Assembly (NCBI GenBank): GCA_013265495.1
Contig: MU062844.1
Span: forward strand, 923,548 to 987,547
Source: Vicugna vicugna
Taxonomy: Eukaryota
DNA length: 64,000 bases
Reading direction: 5' to 3'
The notes under the pieces are model-generated. The model worked only from the letters and a program-made list of their open reading frames with translations, was not told the origin of the DNA and did no database searches. Both the position numbers and the translations under genes were made by a program. Position 1 is the stretch's first letter, and each line of letters opens with the position of its first letter. Shown piece after piece: positions 6,211 through 40,360 of this stretch.

Positions 6211-8479
6211 GGAGGAATATCATTATTTCAAATATGCATATACACATAAACACTTAAAATTTGCCCTCAAGGAACTTACACTCTAGTAGAGGAGAGGAGG
6301 TATTCATAGAGATAATACATAAAGCAAAACCCACCTAGTAACCCACATGGCTAGATGTACCTAAAATGTAAGCCTTACCTTTTCCCCCCATGGAGAAGTT
6401 AGGAATAAGCGGGGGAAAGGGAGGGGGAAGTGAGCAAGTTGAGCAAAAACGTAAAGGTCTAGTGCTCACGCTTGATTCATGAGGGGCTGTTATTAAAATC
6501 AGAGTGCATTTCACTTGGATGGGATCAAAATGGTAAACCGAGATAAGATTAGAACTTTATCTACATCAAGCATTATTTTCACCTCTAAATTAATTATATT
6601 TCAAGACCACCCACTGATGGAAGCAAATATTAATATCTCTCCACTGTGAATCAAAGTAAACCACAAATATCTGCCACGTAGCATATTTCAGTTATTATGA
6701 AGCTTTGTTCTTTTTTTTTCCCAAGGGTCAAGTAGACTTAGGAAAAAGCAAAAAATAGGGGGAAAGGGTTCGATTTAACTGATACTCAAATTAACTACCA
6801 CTCATCCACAGGGACCTATCATGCTACCAATTTAGAAATGCAGGCAATATGTTCTGAACTTTACCAAATGAGCATCATCTTAGGTGGGCACAGAGAGATC
6901 TTATAGGCTTAGGGAGGTTCAGGTTTTGTGGCCATAACCCCACTGGCACACGCAACCAAACAAGTCGGAGTTTTAGGCAATGCCCACAACTGCTTCTTCA
7001 CAGCCACACAAACTGCACTCAGACTTGAGTCCCACAAGAAATAGGTGGCAAAAAGCACCAGCCAGCTCGATGTGTCACTAGTGGAAGGAAGGGCTGCTCA
7101 CATCTCAGACACTCTCCTTCCTTTTTTAACATGACCAGGTTTCTCAAAGTATCACCCTTTAACCCACTTCCTCTCAACATCATCTGCACAGCCCACACAT
7201 GGGACCCAACACATACCCCAATATTATCCCACTGACTTCTTTGATTTCCTGCCATAAGGACCAACTTGAAAACCCTGACAATAATGAGGAGTATCCAGTT
7301 TCTTTCACCACTTTTGAGCCAACAGATACTTTCATTCCTCTCCTCTCTGTGCCCTCTTAAATCTCTCTCGCATCTTGACTCCTCTGAAAATGTCCTTTCT
7401 CATTTTTCTTTTGCCATTTCCTGACTCCGTTTTTCTTCTTTACTCTTAAGTGGAGTCACACTCTTGTCCAATCCCCATAAGGCAGTTTCATGCTCTAGGA
7501 GAGGAAGATGCTTCCGCCCATATTCCCTGGACTTCACAAAACTCCCTTTCTAACACCCGCATCAAGGGAGGAGCAGGGTCACTGCCTATCAAGGGGGTGT
7601 TCAACTATGGGGACCCACTTCTGTTCCTGCTTCTTTGCCTACAATCAGGTGGGTAAGTCAGGTAAGACTCTAAGCCCCATACTTGCCAACTCAGATCTCT
7701 CAGCCTAAGCCTCACTCCAGTTTTTACCAGATTTCTCCACTGATTGTGCTGGGCCCTAGTCAATTCAGAATTTGCACTTACAATATGGCTGTTTTTGTGT
7801 GTGCTAGCTACTCCTTCCATCAAAACTTCAGAAGGGAGAAGGAATTGGTGGCAATTTTTAGGTCCCAAAGTCATACTCTAAAACCCTGTAGGAAAAAAAA
7901 AATGCTGCTATTCTCCTTCTCTGTGCCTTCATCAGAAATCAGAGAACCAGAAAACCAGAGGTCTAGTTCCCTCACACACCATGTGGTCTTGGCTGAGTCT
8001 TTAACTGCCCTATGCCCCCGTCCCTTCATCTGAAAGTTACAGGATGCTCTAGTAGACTCTTAAGGCCATTCTCAGTTCTGAAATAGCCATACATCAGTGG
8101 CAGGACATGGCTGTTCCCTACTTTTTTCATCCCAGAAGGAAGCCCCCCAAAACTGAGAGGGGGCTGGGAAAATGCTCAGCCACACATAGGAATTCTGCTA
8201 GGCTGCAAACCACTTAAAATGAATGTTTAATAAGATACTGCATCCGTTGTGTACTTCAGCTGAATGTGCTGCAGCCCAGGAGACCTGAAAGAATTAATAC
8301 GGTTCCCAAAGGAGATGGTGGGAATTGCTGAGGCAGAAGCAGACTCTGACTTGATAAATGTAAAAGTGCTTTGAGAACGTCAGAAGGAAAGTGCTATGAC
8401 AAATGTCTGCTCGCTCTATTAGGATGTCTCCTGCTATCTAAGGAACACACTCCAAGAAGGTCTCAGGGCTGGGGACCAC

Positions 8480-8760
8480 AGCACACAAGTGCATTCACGC
8501 TTCCCTTCCCTTCCTCACCCCTCCAATCCCTTCCTGGGGCTTAGATCGAGCCACAGTGCCCTGCAACACCAATCCTTCCCTGTTTCTCATTCTTCACTTT
8601 GCTTTTTCTTTCCGACCTCCACTTCTGCACAATTCTCAAATCAGGCACTCATGACATCTCACTCAAATCTTCAAATCTCTCCCCCGACCCTCTCCAAATC
8701 AACACTCTAAGCTGGTCCATAGAAAGACACCCCCCCACCCCTGTCATTCTAAGCAAGAAA
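8480..8760 (+). mobile_element. L2 fragment
   Basis: Pyrimidine-rich L2-like text (ctcaaatcaggcactcatgacatctcactcaaatcttc). Confidence 0.4.
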
Positions 8761-9433
8761 TTTGGACACACCTTCCTTCATTCTGACTGCCTCTAACTTC
8801 AGTATCAAAACCCATTCTTGGGAGCCAACCCCTGCACCAGAGGGCCTTGCAGCCCTTATCAGTCCCTCCCAAGGAACATGTAGGAAAACACCAGGCCCCC
8901 GATGCTCTGGGTCTGCAGTCAGTTCTCTCCACTCACAGCCGCTCCCCTAGAGAAGCACAGCTGCACGTGCCTCTGGCCCAGGGCTTCTCAAACTTTCCAC
9001 CTCGCTCCCCATAACCGTAGAGAGTCTGCGGAAGTATGACATTTTTCTGCCTTTTTGGGGTTCACCTAAAAACTTTGCATTTTATTCCACAACATTCCCA
9101 CATTTGATCATTTAGAAATCATTTTAGTTGCTTACCACGGTAGGGGGAAAATGGACATTTTTCACAAAACAAGCAGGTAAAATTGACATTATAGGACTAT
9201 AAGCCTTATTCAAGTTCCCCAGGCTCTCCTCTGTGCACTACTTAGAAATCTCCAAACATTCCACTACCACTCACCCCATCATAGTTTTCATCTCCTGAGT
9301 TCTTCCAGGCACACCAAGGTGCCTCTGAGTACCCCGCTTTTCAGAACCAACGCAAAAAGCATTTCCATTCAATTCCAGGTTGGAGAGGCAGGACCTGGTT
9401 CTCACTTGAGTCAGTGGCCACTACCCCTTTTCA

Positions 9434-9961
<528 letters not shown>

Positions 9962-10739
9962 CTGCAAGGTGAAGAAGAAGAGTCAGGGCTGCTGTGTGCA
10001 AGAGTTCTAGACGAAAGGGATTACCGACCCAGCCCGTTGCTCTAGGAGCCAGGTACAGAACCCACTCCCAGCGAGAGCTGCTGGAGTCACTAACTCCATT
10101 CCCCATGCCCGATGCCATCCACAACTCTCGACCCATCTCCAACTCTATCTACAACTCAAATCCGAGCTAATTCTCCATCCCTGTCCCCCAAACCATCTTC
10201 GCATTCAGCCTCCTCATCCCCGGTCTTCAGCCTCCTCTCCATCTCTGACTCTCCCCACAACTCCCACCGCATCCCCCAAGTTAGCTTTGGACCACTGCCC
10301 CTGAGCATAGGCGCAGAACAAACCCTCCACCCACCCGGCTCCCACCCGGGCTAGTGCGGACCAAGTTACTGACCCCGCCCCCTTTTCACAGGGAGCAAAC
10401 TGCGAAACAGTCACGGGCGTGCGGAGGCGACAGAGCGACTCTGCATCTCTACTCCCGCTCTAAGCGAGTTGACTGACCCCGCCCTCTGCGAAACCGCGGG
10501 GTTCAGCACCCACCTGACTCCACTCGGCACCGGCACCGGCACGGGCTGCAGACCCCGCACCTCTCCTGCAGGGTACATCCCAAACGCATGGGAGTAAGGA
10601 CGCTCGCTTGTGTGCCCCAGGATCTAGGGTGCCTGGGAGAACTTAGGGTCCGCCCCACCTTGCGCAAAGGGGCCGTAAAGCGATTTTCACTCAACTGCAA
10701 GCAGCCCTAGGATCCACCCCTTACACGCGAGCGTACACA

Positions 10740-10740
<1 letters not shown>

Positions 10741-10773
<33 letters not shown>
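10741..10773. repeat. (AC)16 microsatellite
   Basis: Perfect dinucleotide run read directly. Confidence 0.99.
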
Positions 10774-10776
<3 letters not shown>

Positions 10777-11271
10777 TCTGACGCTCGCCGTGTGCAATGC
10801 AGAATTCCGGAGAGGAGGCAGGTTCCCCCGCGGGCCGGCGCGTGGGAGCTGGCGAAGAATGTGCACAAGGGTGTGGGGCAGGGGACAGTTGGCTCCCTAG
10901 AAACCTTCCGACCGACGTGAAATGTACAGCACCCCCACCCACCCATCCCAGCCTTTCCTTCTGATTCTGTTACCAAGTCTTAGGTGCACGTGGGCAGCGG
11001 GCTGCACACCCTCACAGGCACGCACGCATTTCTGCGCACATCTGCAGGCCGCAGTAGGGGAGCCCACGGCCATCCGGAGTCTGCACACGTCCTCGGGCGG
11101 TGCACACACGTATCGCGCCAGGTACACAGCAGTGCCTGCCTGCAAATACCGGCACAGTCGTGCACGCGTGCACTGGCGCGCGCCCCTCGGGCCGGGCGCT
11201 GCTGGAGCCCGGGGAAGTTGAGGCGAACTCGCACGGGCCTCGGCACTCTTCGGCTGAGCATCGCGGAGCCG

Positions 11272-11290
11272 CAGCGCCCCCTGGTGCTTC
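11272..11290 (-). promoter_or_regulatory. CTCF motif
   Basis: Minus strand GAAGCACCAGGGGGCGCTG versus the core CCACCAGGGGGCGC (one core mismatch). Confidence 0.7.
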
Positions 11291-11425
11291 TCCCGCACCT
11301 CGCTAGTAGTGCTCCCTCTCCCGCTTTATTTCTCCCTCTCCCCCCTGATCCTTCTCCCGCTCTCCCTCTAGTCGAGTCTTCCTTCTGCCCGGCCAGCCGA
11401 GCCCAGGTCTCCCGCTGGGACGTAC

Positions 11426-11630
11426 CNNNNNNNNNNNNNNNNNNNNNNNNNNNNNNNNNNNNNNNNNNNNNNNNNNNNNNNNNNNNNNNNNNNNNNNNNN
11501 NNNNNNNNNNNNNNNNNNNNNNNNNNNNNNNNNNNNNNNNNNNNNNNNNNNNNNNNNNNNNNNNNNNNNNNNNNNNNNNNNNNNNNNNNNNNNNNNNNNN
11601 NNNNNNNNNNNNNNNNNNNNNNNNNNNNNN
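11426..11630 (-). other. GRIN2A: Assembly gap (204 N at 11427-11630) probably hiding a non-coding GRIN2A exon
   Basis: A branch-like CTGAT and pyrimidine tract (cctgcctctccatctctt) run into the gap from the right; a donor exits on the left. Confidence 0.75.
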
Positions 11631-12202
11631 AAGAGATGGAGAGGCAGGATCAGCCCACCGGCGGGGGGTGGAGAACGGGGGGACAGACTGCAGTCTGCAG
11701 TGCTCACAGCCCCTCTGTGCGCACAGGGGGCTCTACCGGAGACGGGGAGCTGAAGCTCCGTGCTCGAGACGCCCCCAGTTGGGATCCTAAGACCCTGAGG
11801 CCGAAATGGAGAGCTCCACTTCGGGGAGCACAAGAGAACCGGAGCCCCAGGTTGGCCACCCTCGAGAAGCTAACAGGGCACCTCCACTCTCACCCCCTGC
11901 CACCTCCCTGGCGCCGGCTGCTGGGAGTTGTGCGGCCAGGAGCTGCTGAGCAAGGCGGGTAGGGAGAGAAAGAGGAGGGAATCGGGGGTTGAGTGGGGGT
12001 GCTGGCTGAGTTTGCGATGTGTCGGCAGGAGGAGAGGGGGAGGGAAGGACTCCGGCTCCCGCGGTCCCGGATCCCCGAGGGAGGTGCGATCTTTCCCACG
12101 CAACGATCCTCTTGCGGTCCTGTCGCCCCCTCTTATCAAGGCCTCCCACCGTCCTCTTCCCAAAGGGGCTGCCCAGACCCAGCGTCCCATGCCAGCACTC
12201 AC

Positions 12203-12300
12203 CGCAGCCTCTCTCCACATACTTCTCAGCAGTGGCCGCCCCTGGTCATCTCCAGGGATGATGGCTGCGGCCGCGACTCTCAGCGCTCACCCGGCCCCAT
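12203..12300 (-). other. GRIN2A: Non-coding first exon (5' boundary/TSS approximate)
   Basis: Donor GCG|GTGAGT at 12202..12197. The exon text ...CTGCTGAGAAGTATGTGGAGAGAGGCTGCG resembles the recalled GRIN2A mRNA leader. Confidence 0.75.
12226..12249 (-). promoter_or_regulatory. uORF MTRGGHC* in exon 1
   Basis: ATG ACC AGG GGC GGC CAC TGC TGA read directly. Confidence 0.6.
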
Positions 12301-12466
12301 GCCCCGGCTAAGCCCTCGGCGCCTCCCTCCGAGAGCCTGAGCTCGGCTTCCTGCCCCACTCCGGACAGCAGCTGCCCGATCCTCTGAGAGCGCCCAGGAG
12401 TCCTCTCCGCAGCCCAGGCTCCGAGCTGGTGTGTGTGTGAGGGCGAGTGTGTGATTGAATGTGGGA

Positions 12467-12483
12467 GCGCGCGCGCGCGTGTG
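12467..12483. repeat. (GC)6-GTGTG alternating purine/pyrimidine tract
   Basis: gcgcgcgcgcgcgtgtg, preceded by (GT)n-like runs from ~12429. Confidence 0.9.
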
Positions 12484-12968
12484 GCCGGGGATCCCCGCGG
12501 TCCCCGGCCGAGAGAGGCGCGGGCGGGGGAAGGCAGCTCCCTCTAGCCCTTAGCTGCGGGGCCAGCTCCGCGCCTGGCGTTCAGCTCCCCACTTTCCGGC
12601 GGGAGTCCTGAGAGCTCCTGGCCACCCTGATTCGCAGCTCTGGCCAAATCGGGCTCCCCAGGCGTGCTTCTGCTGCGGTCGCCTCGGAGGAAGAGGAGGA
12701 GGAAGCCAGGGGCGCCCCCACTGCAACTTGGGGACTTGTTCTCAGTCGGCGAGACGCAGCAGCCCCCGCGAAAACCGTAAAGGCTTGGAGCTCCGGCGAG
12801 CGAAAGAAGTCTCCCGTCCGCAGCCACCCTCCCCAGCGGCGGGCTAAGGCAGACCCCGCAGTCCCTCGGCGGCGGCGCAGAGCGCGGCCACCGGCTCCCG
12901 GAGCGCACGGCGGCGATAAGGCCAGGATAGGTGGCTGGCTAGAGGCAGGGGCGCCTGCGGCGGCGCTC

Positions 12969-12989
12969 GCCGCTGTCCGTCGTGCTGAA
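12969..12989 (-). promoter_or_regulatory. RE1/NRSE (REST-binding) element
   Basis: TTCAGCACGACGGACAGCGGC, 19/21 identical to the consensus TTCAGCACCACGGACAGCGCC with canonical spacing. Confidence 0.88.
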
Positions 12990-13112
12990 ACCACGCTCTC
13001 CGCCCGCTCCCGCTCCTGGGCGTCTGGTGCGGCTGAGGAATCAATTATTCAGATCTCAGCTACCGCTTCCTCCTCCCCCAGTGCCTCGCGCTGGGTACAG
13101 CAATCCCCGCTC

Positions 13113-13149
13113 CACGCACAGGCGCGCAGACACACATATACACACACAC
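13113..13149. repeat. Interrupted (CA)n tract
   Basis: cacgcacaggcgcgcagacacacatatacacacacac. Confidence 0.8.
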
Positions 13150-14114
13150 CCCACAGAATCTGCTCCAATGCTTCTCCCTGTGCCTCGCCACCCCCGAACA
13201 GGAACCCACTCCTCTGATCTCAGGGAGCCAGAATCCTAAAACTAAAACCATCTCTACATCCTCCACTTGCTTCTTTTTTGTTTTCTAAGTTATATCATAT
13301 AAAAGTCGTCCTGAGGCTGCCACTTTTAAGCTACCAGCAGGGGCAAGCCTGAGAGCATGGGACTGCTTGGGTGTATAGGACTTGACTGGCTTAAATTCTG
13401 GTAACTGGACATGAAAAGCATGGTCAAGTAAGGACCTTTGCCCCTTTTACACTCAAGTGTGTCTCTCCTTTCAACACGCCTCTCTGCTTTTCTCCCCTCA
13501 GGCCCTGGAAAGAAAGGGATCTTAAATTGTAAGGGGTTTTGCAATCACTGTTCTAACCCTGAATCTTCCACTTAATCAGCCTGATGTCACCTTCAGGCCC
13601 ACTATTTATCTTCCCTTATCAATTACTAATCTGGAAAATGGGGAGGACAGTAAAAGAGATCAACTTCTCAGGGCTACTTTGAAAAGAAAATGAGATAGCC
13701 TTGGTAAAGGAGCCACCATGGTCCAGCACATAGTAGGTGCTCAGTAAACTACAGAGTGGCCTGAGATGGAAGGGACTCCTTCCAGGAATGCAGGTGTGGC
13801 TACTGAAATGGAGATAGGAAAGAAGCACTGTTCCTGGAACCTATGTGTTTATTATTAAGCTGGTTATTGTATGTTGAGTTCTCTAGAGTTTCATCATCCA
13901 AAAGACAGAGAAAGGATGGGAGAAATTTTGGAGGGTAAATGAGAATGGGGAGTTGTGTGATATAAGGCAGAGAGAGGTTGGCGAACTGTTCCACTGCTTG
14001 AGGCTGTCACTGGGCTGAGCTGGGTTAGGCCCATCCCTTGGGTGGAGATGATTCTTTCTTGGGCTTTGGCACAGGGATAGGACCCTAATGTGGGGACTTA
14101 CAGGGAAGTTGAAC

Positions 14115-14799: not shown

Positions 14800-15103
14800 A
14801 AATACAAAACAGAAACAGACTCATAGACATAGAATACAAACTTGTGGTTGCCAAGGGGGCAGGGGGTGGGAAGGGACAGACTGAGATTTCAAAATGTAGA
14901 AAAGATAAACAAGATTATACTGTATAGCATAGGGAAATAAATACAAAATCTTGTGGTAGCTCACAGAGAAAAAATGTGACAATGAATATATATATGTTCG
15001 TGTATAACTGAAAAATTGTGCTCTACACTGGAATTTGACACAACATTGTAAAATGACTATAACTCAATAAAAAAAATGTTTAAAATAAGTAAATAAATAA
15101 AAG
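14800..15103 (+). mobile_element. 5'-truncated lineage-specific L1 3'UTR with A-rich tail
   Basis: acagaaacagactcatagacatagaatacaaacttgtggttgccaaggggg...gactataactcaataaaaaa; TSD tgtgacctc at 14791-14799 and 15104-15112. Confidence 0.92.
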
Positions 15104-22791: not shown

Positions 22792-23521
22792 GTACACTGC
22801 TGGTGGGAATGCAGTTTGGTGCAGCCACTATGGAAAACAGTGTGGTGATTCCTCAAAAGACTAGGAATAGACTTACCATATGACCCAGTAATCCTACTCC
22901 TGGGCATGTATCCAAACCCTACTTCAAAAAGACACCTGCACCCCAGTGTTCATAGCAGCACTNNNNNNNNNNNNNNNNNNNNNNNNNNNNNNNNNNNNNN
23001 NNNNNNNNNNNNNNNNNNNNNNNNNNNNNNNNNNNNNNNNNNNNNNNNNNNNNNNNNNNNNNNNNNNNNNNNNNNNNNNNNNNNNNNNNNNNNNNNNNNN
23101 NNNNNNNNNNNNNNNNNNNCATTCTAAGTGAAGTAAGCCAGAAAGAGAAAGAAAAATACCATATGAGATCGCTTATATGTGGAATCTAAAAAAAAAAAGA
23201 AAAGAACATAAATACAAAACAGAAACAGACTCATAGACATAGAATAAAAACTTGTGATTGCCAAGGGGGCAGGGGGTGCAAGGGACAGACTGGGATTTCA
23301 AAATTTGTAGATACTGGCTGGCATATGCAGAATAGACAAATAAGATTATACTGTATAGCACATGGAAATATATACAAGATCTTGTGGTAGCTCACAGCAA
23401 AAAAAATGTGACAATGAATATATGTATGTTCATGTATAACTGAAAAATTGTGCTCTACACTGGAATTTGACACAACATTGTAAAATGACTATAACTCAAT
23501 AAAAAAATGTTATTAAAAAAA
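22792..23521 (+). mobile_element. 5'-truncated lineage-specific L1 (ORF2 C-terminus and 3'UTR) containing a 157-N gap (22963-23119)
   Basis: [22 protein letters not shown] zinc-knuckle region, ILSEVSQKEKEKY end of ORF2, same 3'UTR as 14800; TSD aagaatcct at 22783-22791 and 23522-23530. Confidence 0.93.
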
Positions 23522-30342: not shown

Positions 30343-31363
30343 TGTGAAGAGACTTGACTACACTGGGAAGCCCCAGAAATTCAGCCAGAAGTACCTGCCC
30401 ACCAACTTGGGGCCAAGTGAACTAGACTGAGGAAGTGCCCACCTATGGAATCTGTGCATTGGACAATAAGACCCAGAGTTGAAGAGAGGACTTTCTTTAT
30501 ACATTCTTCTGGGCTAATGATCATTTAGTCTTAAAGACAGTTATTTTTGGCCCTCCCTCAGGTGCAGAGGTTAATTAATTACATTCAGGAATCATGGTGG
30601 CTGCAGGGTTAAGTTCGTGGTACACACAGGGCTCTGGGCAAGCCAACCAGACAAGTTCAGGTGATGCTCCTGAAACTTAAGACATTTACCTCTGAGGACC
30701 AGGGCTCCCCACGTACTTTTAACAAGCTCCTTTTCTGCCTAATGAACCCAGGTTGGTTTCTGTTAAGAACTCTGGTGGGTATACCCACGATGGAATAAAT
30801 TTATGCTTTGAGTGCTGTACACCTGAAACTAACACAATATTGTAAATCAATTATATTTCAATTTTAAAAAATTTATGTTTTGAGGCAGGACAAGACAATT
30901 TAACCATAACATACTCCCTGCCCAGATTGGGCCTTCCCTCATGAACAATTTGTATCTGCATTATATATTAACCAGACCTCCCCTTGGCAGGAATGCCTGC
31001 TCAGTCATAAAGATCAGTGTTTTCCCTTCTTCCTACACCAGCAATGGACCTCTTTAGGAGGTAACATTCCTCTCCCAATCCTGTAAGGGGCCATGGTGAC
31101 CTGTTGCTCATTTTCTACATGCTTATCTGGAATTCGTATCTCTGGTGAACTTTATGTAAAACGTCAGTGTGTCATTTGATGTACAATCCTTTGCCTTGAA
31201 AATGTATGTAACTGTGTAAATGTATACAATGACTTCTAACAAGCAGAACAGTCTTCAAAGTTCCCTGGAAGGCTCTCTCCCAGGTTATAATCCTCATGTT
31301 GGCTGGAATAAAATTCTCTATTTCTTCTTTGGATCAACTATTGATTACTTTTTTCTGTCAACA
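30343..31363 (+). mobile_element. ERV1-type solo LTR (5' boundary uncertain)
   Basis: U3-R-U5 layout, AATAAA at 31307-31312, ends ...ttattgattactttttctgtcaaCA; no TSD found. Confidence 0.7.
30813..30868 (+). mobile_element. 56-bp extreme 3' tip of an older L1 inserted in the LTR
   Basis: tgctgtacacctgaaactaacacaatattgtaaatcaattatatttcaattttaaa; 16-bp TSD aaatttatg(c/t)tttgag at 30797-30812 and 30869-30884. Confidence 0.85.
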
Positions 31364-37900: not shown

Positions 37901-39481
37901 TGCCTAGCTGTGCACACAAAGGAACAAGAAGACTCTGACATGTATTAAGCACCTACTCTATGCACCAGTACTGGGAGCTTTATATACAGCATCTTTAACT
38001 CTTCACAATAGGAATGATCACCCCCAACTTACAGATGTGGAAACTGAGGCTCAGGCAAGCAAACTAATTTGCAGGAGTTCTCACAGTGAGCAATGTCGCC
38101 AGGATCCCTTAGCAGCCCCCACTGCTCTTGTGTGAGGCTGCAGCAAGACTGGGGGGCCCCGCCACTATGCTCTTGTCTGGGGGGCTTCACTCCCCATAGG
38201 TTCACCAGCTCAGATGGCACCACGGAGCCAGCTCTCAAGAGCACCCCAGGCCCTGCATTTTGACTTTCTGCCCCTGCAGGTGTTTGCCTCCCCCATACGC
38301 AGAACTGTGCCGCCACGAAGACTAATTATAAATGCAGGGTATTTATAGTGAGTTTCTCCACCCAGTGCTTCCAGCACCTCGAGGGAACTATTTACAGAAT
38401 CCTCCCAGCACCTCAGAGAGAAAGACAGAGCCTGGAAGGGGAGACTGGGGTGAAGAGAGGGGCTGACATCTCTCAGAGTAAGGACCCTCAGCCAAGGAAG
38501 ACTTGCAGGGGTGTCTTTTGAAAAAGCTGGGATTTGACCAGACAGCTGTCAGGGAGGAGGGGAGAGAGAGGGAGAAAGAAAAGAGAGAGAGAAAGAGAGG
38601 ACCCGTGACTACACACCTGCCCGTGGCCACAGACTAGGCCATTTCCAAACATCAGCCCATTTCCTCTCTCCGCCTTGACATCCTCATCTGTAAAATGGGG
38701 CTATGATCGTACTGCTTCCTGGGCTTGTAAGATTTAAATGAGCTCAAACACATAAAGAACAGAGCTTGGCAAGGAGTAAACCTCAATAAATGTTATCTAT
38801 TTCTTATTATCATTATTATCATCCTCATGACTAACCCAATAACAGCAGGTAAGTGATATGCATTGGGTCTGAACTTCAGAAAGTTAATAAAAACAATAAT
38901 TAAGATTTCCAAGTGTTTCCTCTGTAATGTGTGGTTGTGTCATGAGGCTATTTGGGAACCAAATTAATGAAGGTAAAGGCAGGTGGTTTCTTGATGCCTC
39001 CACTCAGATCAGAGGAAAAAGAAAAGAAAGAACGGAGATGCGCAGGGGACACACAGCAGCCTGTTTCTGGTCCTGTGCTGACGGTCAAAGAACAGTGACC
39101 ACAAAGCACGCGACAGATGAGTTGGTAGAAACAGGAAGTTAGGACAAGATCTTTGGGGGCTGCTGCACACCCAAACCTCTCAACCTGTAACAGGGGCCAA
39201 GCCCAGAGGTCAGCTGTCAGCTAGGTTCCAGTGCCTAAACCAAGGAACTCTAAAGGTCACCCAAAAATGTGCAAAGTGGGGCAATTACCTCTCACCCAGC
39301 CAAGGCAAGGTGAAGATTGAATGAAAAACTATGTACAAATTTCCTGGTACATGATGATGGCTTTTACAAAAATGGTCACCATTATTAGAGACCTAAGTTT
39401 CATTATGATTTGTCTCTTTTCCGGTCTTTATTATATATATTAAAATTACAGCATGCTTGACATTAAAAATAATTCAAACTC

Positions 39482-39758
39482 CCCTTCCTGGTCCTCTTTG
39501 ATAAGAATCTCATCCCAGGTGCCAGGCTTCTGTACTGTATGTGCTGGACATGGACGTGATGGTCTGGCTTTTTTTTTGAAACCTTGAAGAAATATATCCC
39601 TGACTTGTTTAATGTTCTTTGTTCTGACAAAATACAAAACTGTGCTAAAAACCCTGCTTCTCCAGAGCAGTTTCTCAGGGTAATCTGGGAAGTGGGCTTC
39701 CAGGCTAGTCCTCAGTTTGGCTCAAATAAAACTCTTCTCTATTCTTAAAAATAATAAT
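39482..39758 (+). mobile_element. ERV1 LTR-derived (U3-R) insert with L1-type integration signature
   Basis: LTR-like text, AATAAA at 39725-39730, A-rich run from 39747, exact 14-bp TSD aataattcaaactc (39468-39481 / 39759-39772), left site TT|AAAAA. Confidence 0.8.
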
Positions 39759-40013
39759 AATAATTCAAACTCTTAAGAAAGATACAGGCAGGAAAAAAAA
39801 GGCTCCTCCTCCCTCCCCTCACTCCACCCAAACTGATGTTGGTATTTTTGCTATTATTTTTGTCTTCTTAGTCAGGACAGAAATCCTCAGTCCATAAAGT
39901 CAAGAGTGAATCCTCTCCTGGCATGAGCAGTGACCCTCTGCATGACCATGGGCAAGTCACTTTCCCTCTCTGGGAAATGGCCTTTTCTGCACAAGAAGGA
40001 AGCTGGACTAGTC

Positions 40014-40360
40014 CAGCCATTCCCAAATTGGACCAGCAGAATCTCAGGCCCTGGAAGATTCAAAAAATCCCAGTGCCCAAGCCACACGCCAGGCCATGAG
40101 TCAAGCGGAACCCAGGCATCCACATGTTTTTAAAGCTCTCCAGGTTGTTTCAATGAGCAGCCATGGTTACAGGAGACTAGCCCAGACCTTCTTGAACTCT
40201 AATGTGCACACACATTGCCCTCAGTCTGTGCAAAAATGTCGATTCTGGTTCAGCAGTTCTGGAGCAGGGCTTGAGGTTCTGAATTTCTAACAAGCTGCCA
40301 GGTGGTGTCCGCACTGCTGGTCCAGGGATCCTGTTCAGACCAAGGAGGGACCTGACCACT
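40014..40360. mobile_element. Two abutting MER5-type MITEs
   Basis: cagaatc...aaagctctccaggttg..aatgagcagcc, then aactctaatgtgcac...gattctggttcagcagttctgg...ctaacaagctgccaggtg; CTAG at the boundaries. Confidence 0.7.

Follow-up and report, generated by a model that had tools for sequence, protein, structure and literature searches.

Processed pseudogenes of HERV-W (LTR17) are defined, in the accessible text of PMC5537654 and PMC5016936, by a U3-R end, an A-tail, a TT/AAAA target site and a target-site duplication (TSD) of 5 to 15 bp. According to the same passages, processed copies make up 135 of the 213 non-solo HERV-W elements, and most of them carry internal genes (PMC5016936, PMC5537654). 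Excerpts of PMC4351823 describe the HERV-K(HML-2) elements ERVK-30 and ERVK-31 as retrocopies of a spliced 1.5-kb rec mRNA. In L1 3' transduction, L1 copies an RNA whose end lies at a poly(A) signal further downstream, adding a fresh A-tail and TSD, and 5' truncation can leave the transduced part alone as an orphan transduction (PMC4862182, in the sections available). The available part of PMC11359688 mentions tailed LTR copies for HERV-W only. A literature search at the level of titles and abstract openings retrieved no account of LTR retrocopies with an A-tail for camelids or other artiodactyls, and the words "pseudogene" and "solo" are absent from the accessible text of the camelid survey PMC8605555.

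The locus described here lies in a stretch of 64,000 nucleotides from Vicugna vicugna (assembly GCA_013265495.1, contig MU062844.1, positions 923,548 to 987,547, forward strand), referred to below as the window. It contains an insert, a piece of an ERV1-type LTR composed of the end of U3 and R, which very probably derived from a polyadenylated RNA and was inserted once by L1 through target-primed reverse transcription (Table 1). The insert has no TG start, no U5 and no CA end, and R would begin about 25 to 30 nt downstream of its TATA-like box. Sequence inspection and a repeat search agree on the duplication that the first-pass annotation had placed at a TT/AAAAA site. The two copies (39468-39481 and 39759-39772) match exactly over 14 bp, and over 17 of 18 nt when extended, with a spacing of 291. 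An exact 14-mer would occur at one given position with a probability of 1.3e-8, which rises to 5e-6 if 20 by 20 offsets are allowed, and the TSD score of 15 compares with 5 to 10 at six control positions. Moreover, the repeat pair falls on borders that were set independently by LTR homology. The duplication is within the range of 7 to 20 bp of L1 retrocopies and begins at a TT/AAAA site, and its left copy is also LTR-like.

Table 1. Features of the insert and of the related solo LTR in the window (all on the forward strand)
Feature	Position	Strand	Basis or remark
Solo LTR of the sister subfamily B, with U5 and CA end	30881..31363	+	for comparison only, not the source
L1-endonuclease-type target site TT/AAAAA	39463..39469	+	TT 39463-39464, AAAAA 39465-39469, read from the sequence
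Left target-site duplication copy, 17 nt	39465..39481	+	39468-39481 (AATAATTCAAACTC) repeated exactly
Piece of an ERV1-type LTR of ~510 bp (family A): 5'-truncated U3 plus R	39482..39746	+	homology to sibling loci
Putative decayed TATA-like box	39633..39639	+	sequence and position relative to sibling copies
AATAAA polyadenylation signal	39725..39730	+	the A-run starts 16 nt later
A5 followed by (TAA) repeats, 12 bp	39747..39758	+	decayed poly(A), or A-rich start of the duplication with slippage; both fit
Right target-site duplication copy, exact 14 bp	39759..39772	+	repeat search and sequence

The insert had been reported as 277 bp of LTR-like sequence. Its LTR likeness stands, and the true split between the repeats is 265 bp of LTR and 12 bp of tail. 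This tail, A5(TAA)3, starts at +16 from the polyadenylation signal and is absent in 29 of 29 sibling loci. The caveat attached to it at the outset remains valid, as the tail can be read wholly as a duplication of 17 to 19 bp in which (TAA)3 arose by slippage, leaving no poly(A) of its own. TAA repeats arise in A-tails, as noted in the accessible text of PMC3812793, and the (TAA)3 run fits either the decay of an A-tail or slippage within the duplication.

A search of the vicugna genome with the insert gave 460 candidates, of which the best 40 were scored and are 79 to 90% identical to it; 29 non-self loci were fetched. Past the 3' end of the insert, all 29 have a T/G-rich U5 (in L019 just about 10 nt of it), which bears out the proposal that the LTR-derived sequence stops 16 nt past AATAAA, and 28 of the 29 reach further 5' than the insert. 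The parent LTR, designated family A, is about 510 bp long; in L009, L013, L014, L015, L021 and L025, among others, it has TG..CA ends and is flanked by 4-bp TSDs, in contrast to the insert. These 4-bp duplications indicate a class I (ERV1) element, which we take to belong to the MER4 group. Pairwise identity among the family copies has a mean of 81.9% (465 pairs).

Only one of the 29 family-A loci, L016, shows a proviral junction. This locus (L016/L091) is the 5' LTR of a family-A provirus whose other LTR lies at a distance of 7.8 kb and is preceded by a purine tract. The provirus retains remnants of an integrase (rve, PF00665, E = 3.6e-8) and of an RNase H (E = 0.006, below the curated cut-off), and a search of the PDB with the integrase remnant gave 0 matches. 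L091 (G000:C8534:2762500-2772400) and L072 (G000:C1699:170800-178600), the latter representing the provirus type of family B, are old and heavily broken proviruses of sister LTR families. The two LTRs of each provirus are 79% identical in L091 and 74% in L072, their internal sequences are 65 to 74% alike, and L072 contains no long frame. At L073 (G000:C12065:1776800-1779300), a near-perfect tandem duplication of 689 bp (99.9%) takes in a family-A LTR end and is either a recent duplication or an assembly artefact.

The solo LTR near 31 kb in the window had been considered homologous to the insert over its R region, at about 31245-31330. The two sequences are indeed homologous (68.5% identity, 170/248; alignment score of 80 against 24.8 ± 3.6 for 300 shuffles, with a maximum of 38), but the homology is not confined to R and spans 31045-31326. 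With 68.5% identity, against 79 to 90% for true family members, this element was rejected as the parent of the insert. Its true 5' end may be situated 10 to 20 nt further left, judging by comparison with the LTR starts of L072. Directly upstream and on the same strand, positions 30770-30870 present what looks to us like the 3' end of an L1. The layout of an apparent L1 followed by a solo LTR, at 30770-31363, is the arrangement that would yield an LTR-terminated transduction.

The flanks of the insert may belong to an L1ME element. A genome search with the left flank matched only itself, a pattern across the junction gave 0 matches, and alignment of the flanks one by one to 56 stretches (268 kb) gave best scores of 40 (left) and 26 (right), with a shuffle maximum of 28. 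The insert's own branch in the tree of family copies measures 0.088. At a neutral rate near 2e-9 per site per year, this corresponds to an age of roughly 40 million years, a value that is uncorrected for CpG decay and is an upper bound only for the insertion. In 20 runs from 7 studies, carrying four close organism labels, 0.88 to 0.96 of the sampled words of 38900-40350 are present. Because the insert accounts for a fifth of this interval, such word shares suggest that it is present under all four labels, in which it is likely fixed.

Comparison of 100 of the 208 stop-free window frames with Pfam gave one weak match, below cut-off, and no gene was recognized near the insert. Elsewhere in the window, positions 8000-14000 form a CpG island (observed/expected 0.45 to 0.74; no Pfam match in the frames scanned) that is likely a promoter, and two copies of a repeat of about 300 bp, 86% alike, are found at 14800-15088 and 23210-23521. 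Among the loci fetched, a 4-kb stretch is 99.2% identical on two contigs (L089:404-4438 and L090:5859-9901, one of them near a contig end), as a segmental duplication or an uncollapsed haplotype. The flanks of several LTR loci contain a tRNA-headed SINE, which we take to be the camelid Vic-1 element (3 matches in 94 kb, 0 in the window), and the copy in L067 has an Rfam tRNA match (E = 4.3e-5). The description of the lineage as SINE-poor holds for the window and fits the accessible text of the camelid survey, where SINEs amount to about 2% and are nearly all MIR (PMC8605555), but the presence of the tRNA-headed element elsewhere makes it only partly apt.

Other A-tailed LTR ends were found elsewhere in the genome. 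A strict pattern of the tailed end matched only once, at the insert itself, against 60 matches for the end that continues into U5, while looser patterns revealed 15 A-tailed LTR ends, including the insert, from three LTR subfamilies. This count excludes L096, L097, L108, L109 and L111, which were discarded solely on the basis of the text that the pattern had matched. For one anchor, 8 of 10 matches were tailed, to be set against 260 anchors with an estimated 85% passing the filter, so that about 2 to 3% of the ends are tailed; counted by eye, tailed ends number 2 in the first 100 listed of the 260 anchors and 1 in the first 100 of 276. Because exact anchors miss diverged copies, the true number is likely some tens. 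In all 15 copies the A-run begins 13 to 24 nt after the signal and the LTR homology ends at one common coordinate, at which some of the others carry pure tails of A10 to A18. This common 3' stop shows that the end is a real cleavage site and not a chance break.

At the other end, the copies are scattered, with LTR homology over 40 to 473 nt. TSDs are clear in 4 of the 15, namely the window copy (14 bp exact), L063 and L102 (13 bp each, with long clean A-tails) and L099 (17/18). Five more are plausible at best, A-rich or mismatched (L055, L061, L066, L068 and L070), the call for L054 is confounded by SINE tails, and none was found for L051, L065, L067, L071 and L098 in searches to 8-9.6 kb upstream. 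None of the 15 copies reaches proviral internal sequence, and this includes L065 and L099, which cover essentially all of U3 and are preceded by neither a polypurine tract nor internal sequence. A search for the source locus of L065 retrieved two flank paralogs, both of which lack the LTR. Eight further candidates, or candidate pairs, did not qualify as tailed copies: L032, L053, L058, L059 and L104 have no LTR homology, L033 and L057/L106 are whole LTRs interrupted by another repeat, and L064 runs on into U5 after its A-run. At L066 (1280-1560), the 5' target copy belonging to a tailed LTR end of very small size is occupied by a tRNA-headed SINE that has a duplication itself, so that the same target text occurs three times; the roughly 35 nt between these occurrences do not align to the LTR. 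L070 (around 1450-1550) and L054 (minus strand, around the anchor), both of family B/C, start about 30 nt past the TATA-like box. They may derive from a tiny LTR transcript and consist of R only, although with two cases the truncation could be due to chance.

The left repeat of the insert displays a likeness to the parent LTR. When this repeat is compared with the LTR over its full length, the best local match lies immediately before the junction in 24 of 26 copies (the exceptions being L019 and L020), and consists of a 10-nt identity plus patchy matches. L014 is the closest and shares with the insert a short deletion just downstream of the junction, and the alignment of the insert to the provirus LTR runs through the left repeat. 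The first-pass annotation had named the presence of the TSD text within the LTR itself as an observation against a retrocopy; this is partly the case, inasmuch as the likeness between the left repeat and the parent LTR falls at the junction. The left repeat could be LTR-derived. The simplest explanation, and a likely one, is 5' microhomology, as any TT/AAAAA target resembles an A-rich stretch of U3, and by eye the junctions of L063, L055 and L068 also lie at A-rich LTR text. Microhomology at the 5' junction and annealing of the cDNA to the 5' target are among the models in the accessible part of PMC2912911, where microhomology was seen less often in mRNA retrocopies with truncated 5' ends than in L1. 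A match as long as that of the insert is unusual.

The sequence of events proposed for the insert begins with a Pol II transcript that would have run through a family-A LTR and been cleaved 16 nt past its AATAAA. L1 ORF2p would then have nicked TT/AAAAA and primed on the poly(A), and the top-strand overhang, resembling the A-rich stretch of the LTR itself, may have annealed to the cDNA, which would have fixed the point of 5' truncation. The tail would subsequently have decayed to A5(TAA)3.

A DNA-level event that involves no RNA is improbable but retains some weight, because microhomology is rarer in mRNA retrocopies than in L1. In one version, a break in A-rich DNA would have engaged a solo LTR where the A-rich text is alike, used it as template for 265 nt and been sealed at a short TT/A match; in another, the left repeat would be locally duplicated LTR sequence. 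Such an event would account for the resemblance of the left repeat to the LTR exactly at the junction, including the closeness of L014 with its shared downstream deletion, and for a tail that can be read without poly(A). Its stop at the coordinate of copies with pure A-tails of 10 to 18 nt would, however, have to be a coincidence, and such an event does not by itself give a staggered duplication of 14 to 17 bp starting at TT/AAAAA. The insert had also been put forward as belonging to a SINE-like family of LTR origin that has not been described before and would have spread from a single master. This reading draws on the other tailed copies, of which L063 and L051 group together (support 87/92), on an AU test that does not reject one clade for the four tailed family-A copies (p-AU 0.10), and on L070 and L054, which begin near the expected start of R. 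Yet the best 40 of the 460 candidates include no near-identical sibling. The best full-length identity to the insert is 84.8% (ordinary copies: maximum 84.8%, mean 82.9%), and identities between tailed copies, at 70 to 87%, are no higher than those to ordinary LTRs (insert against L063, 77.6%; L055, 71.7%; L051, 83.2%; L068, 86.9% over 99 nt). The tree, which omits L068 as too short and whose bootstrap had not converged, requires three changes of the tailed label and recovers a single tailed clade in 0% of 200 bootstrap trees, and the clustering of tailed copies is not beyond that of shuffles (54/500 as low). Shared 5' ends and diagnostic changes are lacking, as is a Pol III head, a promoter module or a tRNA-like head; the alignment to the LTR covers all of the insert as far as the duplication, with no added module, and three subfamilies contribute tailed copies. 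A SINE-like family is thus highly unlikely and largely refuted for the window copy. Other tailed copies do stop at the same LTR coordinate, and the pattern that they form is the one expected if retrocopies with truncated 5' ends arose independently of one another, and not the pattern of a family descended from a master. The 3' end of SVA, its SINE-R part, is likewise an LTR cut at the poly(A) site and moved by L1, but SVA is a multi-module family amplified from masters, whereas the insert has neither other modules nor siblings. The composite nature of SVA, with a HERV-derived part, is outlined in the accessible text of PMC2912911.

For L1 retroposition of a polyadenylated LTR RNA, two sources of that RNA have to be weighed, and the window copy alone cannot settle between them, being truncated inside U3. 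On present analysis the RNA was somewhat more probably a transcript that had run on into a solo LTR, having started at a host promoter or in an L1 lying upstream (as an orphan 3' transduction). The analogy is with one copy, L099/L118 (L118:6140-9741, G000:C3089), where a 17/18 duplication, with its copies 3.55 kb apart, encloses an L1 and an LTR. The L1 comprises a 5' end, an ORF1 remnant with ORF1p domains (PF02994, E = 2e-11, and PF17489), a rearranged middle and a 3' end, with its 3' part 88 to 90% identical to other L1 copies. It is followed by about 90 nt of flank, then by a whole U3-R without a polypurine tract, and then by A10. This is an L1 3' transduction terminated at the poly(A) signal of a solo LTR, and it shows that L1 read-through RNA ending in a solo LTR has been retroposed in the vicugna genome. 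With stronger truncation, a product of this type would look exactly like the window copy, and a host transcript ending in a solo LTR, if copied, would likewise resemble it. Alternatively, L1 could have copied a genomic or spliced provirus mRNA, giving a processed pseudogene of the HERV-W type cut inside its 3' LTR. This is possible but rather doubtful. A family-A provirus exists in L091; HERV-W copies, in the accessible text of PMC5537654 and PMC5016936, combine U3-R, poly(A) and a TSD at TT/AAAA, and the early HERV-W data set consisted mostly of pieces below 0.5 kb; and rec mRNA of HML-2 was also retroposed (PMC4351823, in excerpt). Against it stand the lack of internal sequence in all 15 tailed copies, the lack of a polypurine tract upstream of the near-whole U3 of L065 and L099, the latter having an L1 instead, the rarity of the proviral junction among family-A loci (1/29), and the identity of the insert to the two LTRs of L091 (81.7% and 79.7%), which is no closer than that to solo LTRs. 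Read-through of a solo LTR is ranked above proviral mRNA because L099 carries an L1 and none of the 15 copies carries internal sequence. The initial comparison with L1 retroposition of ERV RNA in HERV-W keeps the LTR origin, the stop at the R/U5 boundary and the L1-type signature, while the proviral nature of the RNA is not established.

The insert is a new instance of a known process. It shares with HERV-W processed pseudogenes a class I ERV LTR, a 3' LTR reduced to U3-R without U5, the TT/AAAA site, a similar TSD and possibly an A-tail; it differs in the ERV and the host, and here about 2 to 3% of the LTR ends are tailed, with internal sequence in 0 of 15. It works like a HERV-W processed pseudogene and yet is not classifiable as one, because it cannot show colinearity with a proviral mRNA and other copies point to read-through. 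The HML-2 retrocopies are similar in that L1 occasionally made single copies, bearing a TSD and an A-tail, of RNA from an ERV group that is not HERV-W, but they copy a spliced proviral mRNA of 1.5 kb, unlike this LTR-only piece of 265 nt. As for L1 3' and orphan transductions, L099 is such a case in the vicugna genome that ends in a solo LTR, whereas for the window copy the transduction is a candidate route only, no source L1 or locus having been found.

Taken singly, the insertion matters little, being old and likely inert, without descendants, and could serve at most as a presence/absence phylogenetic marker. Repeat annotators will count tailed U3-R pieces of this kind as truncated solo LTRs. 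At least one tailed end is an L1 3' transduction, so that U3-R-poly(A) pieces alone are no evidence of proviral expression; they do record the RNA cleavage points of extinct LTRs. Reviews, as represented in the accessible text of PMC5537654, regard HERV-W as the only human ERV group mobilized by L1 on a large scale, and three related LTR subfamilies in a non-primate, with about 2 to 3% tailed ends, stand in contrast to that view. We tentatively suggest that the poly(A) signals of camelid ERV1 solo LTRs repeatedly ended L1 or host read-through transcripts, that L1 scattered tens of U3-R-poly(A) pieces without a provirus, and that the shortest, R-only copies may be full-length tiny LTR transcripts, the seed of an LTR-only SINE-like class. 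If so, tailed LTR fragments would be a general and overlooked by-product of L1 activity and not a peculiarity of HERV-W.
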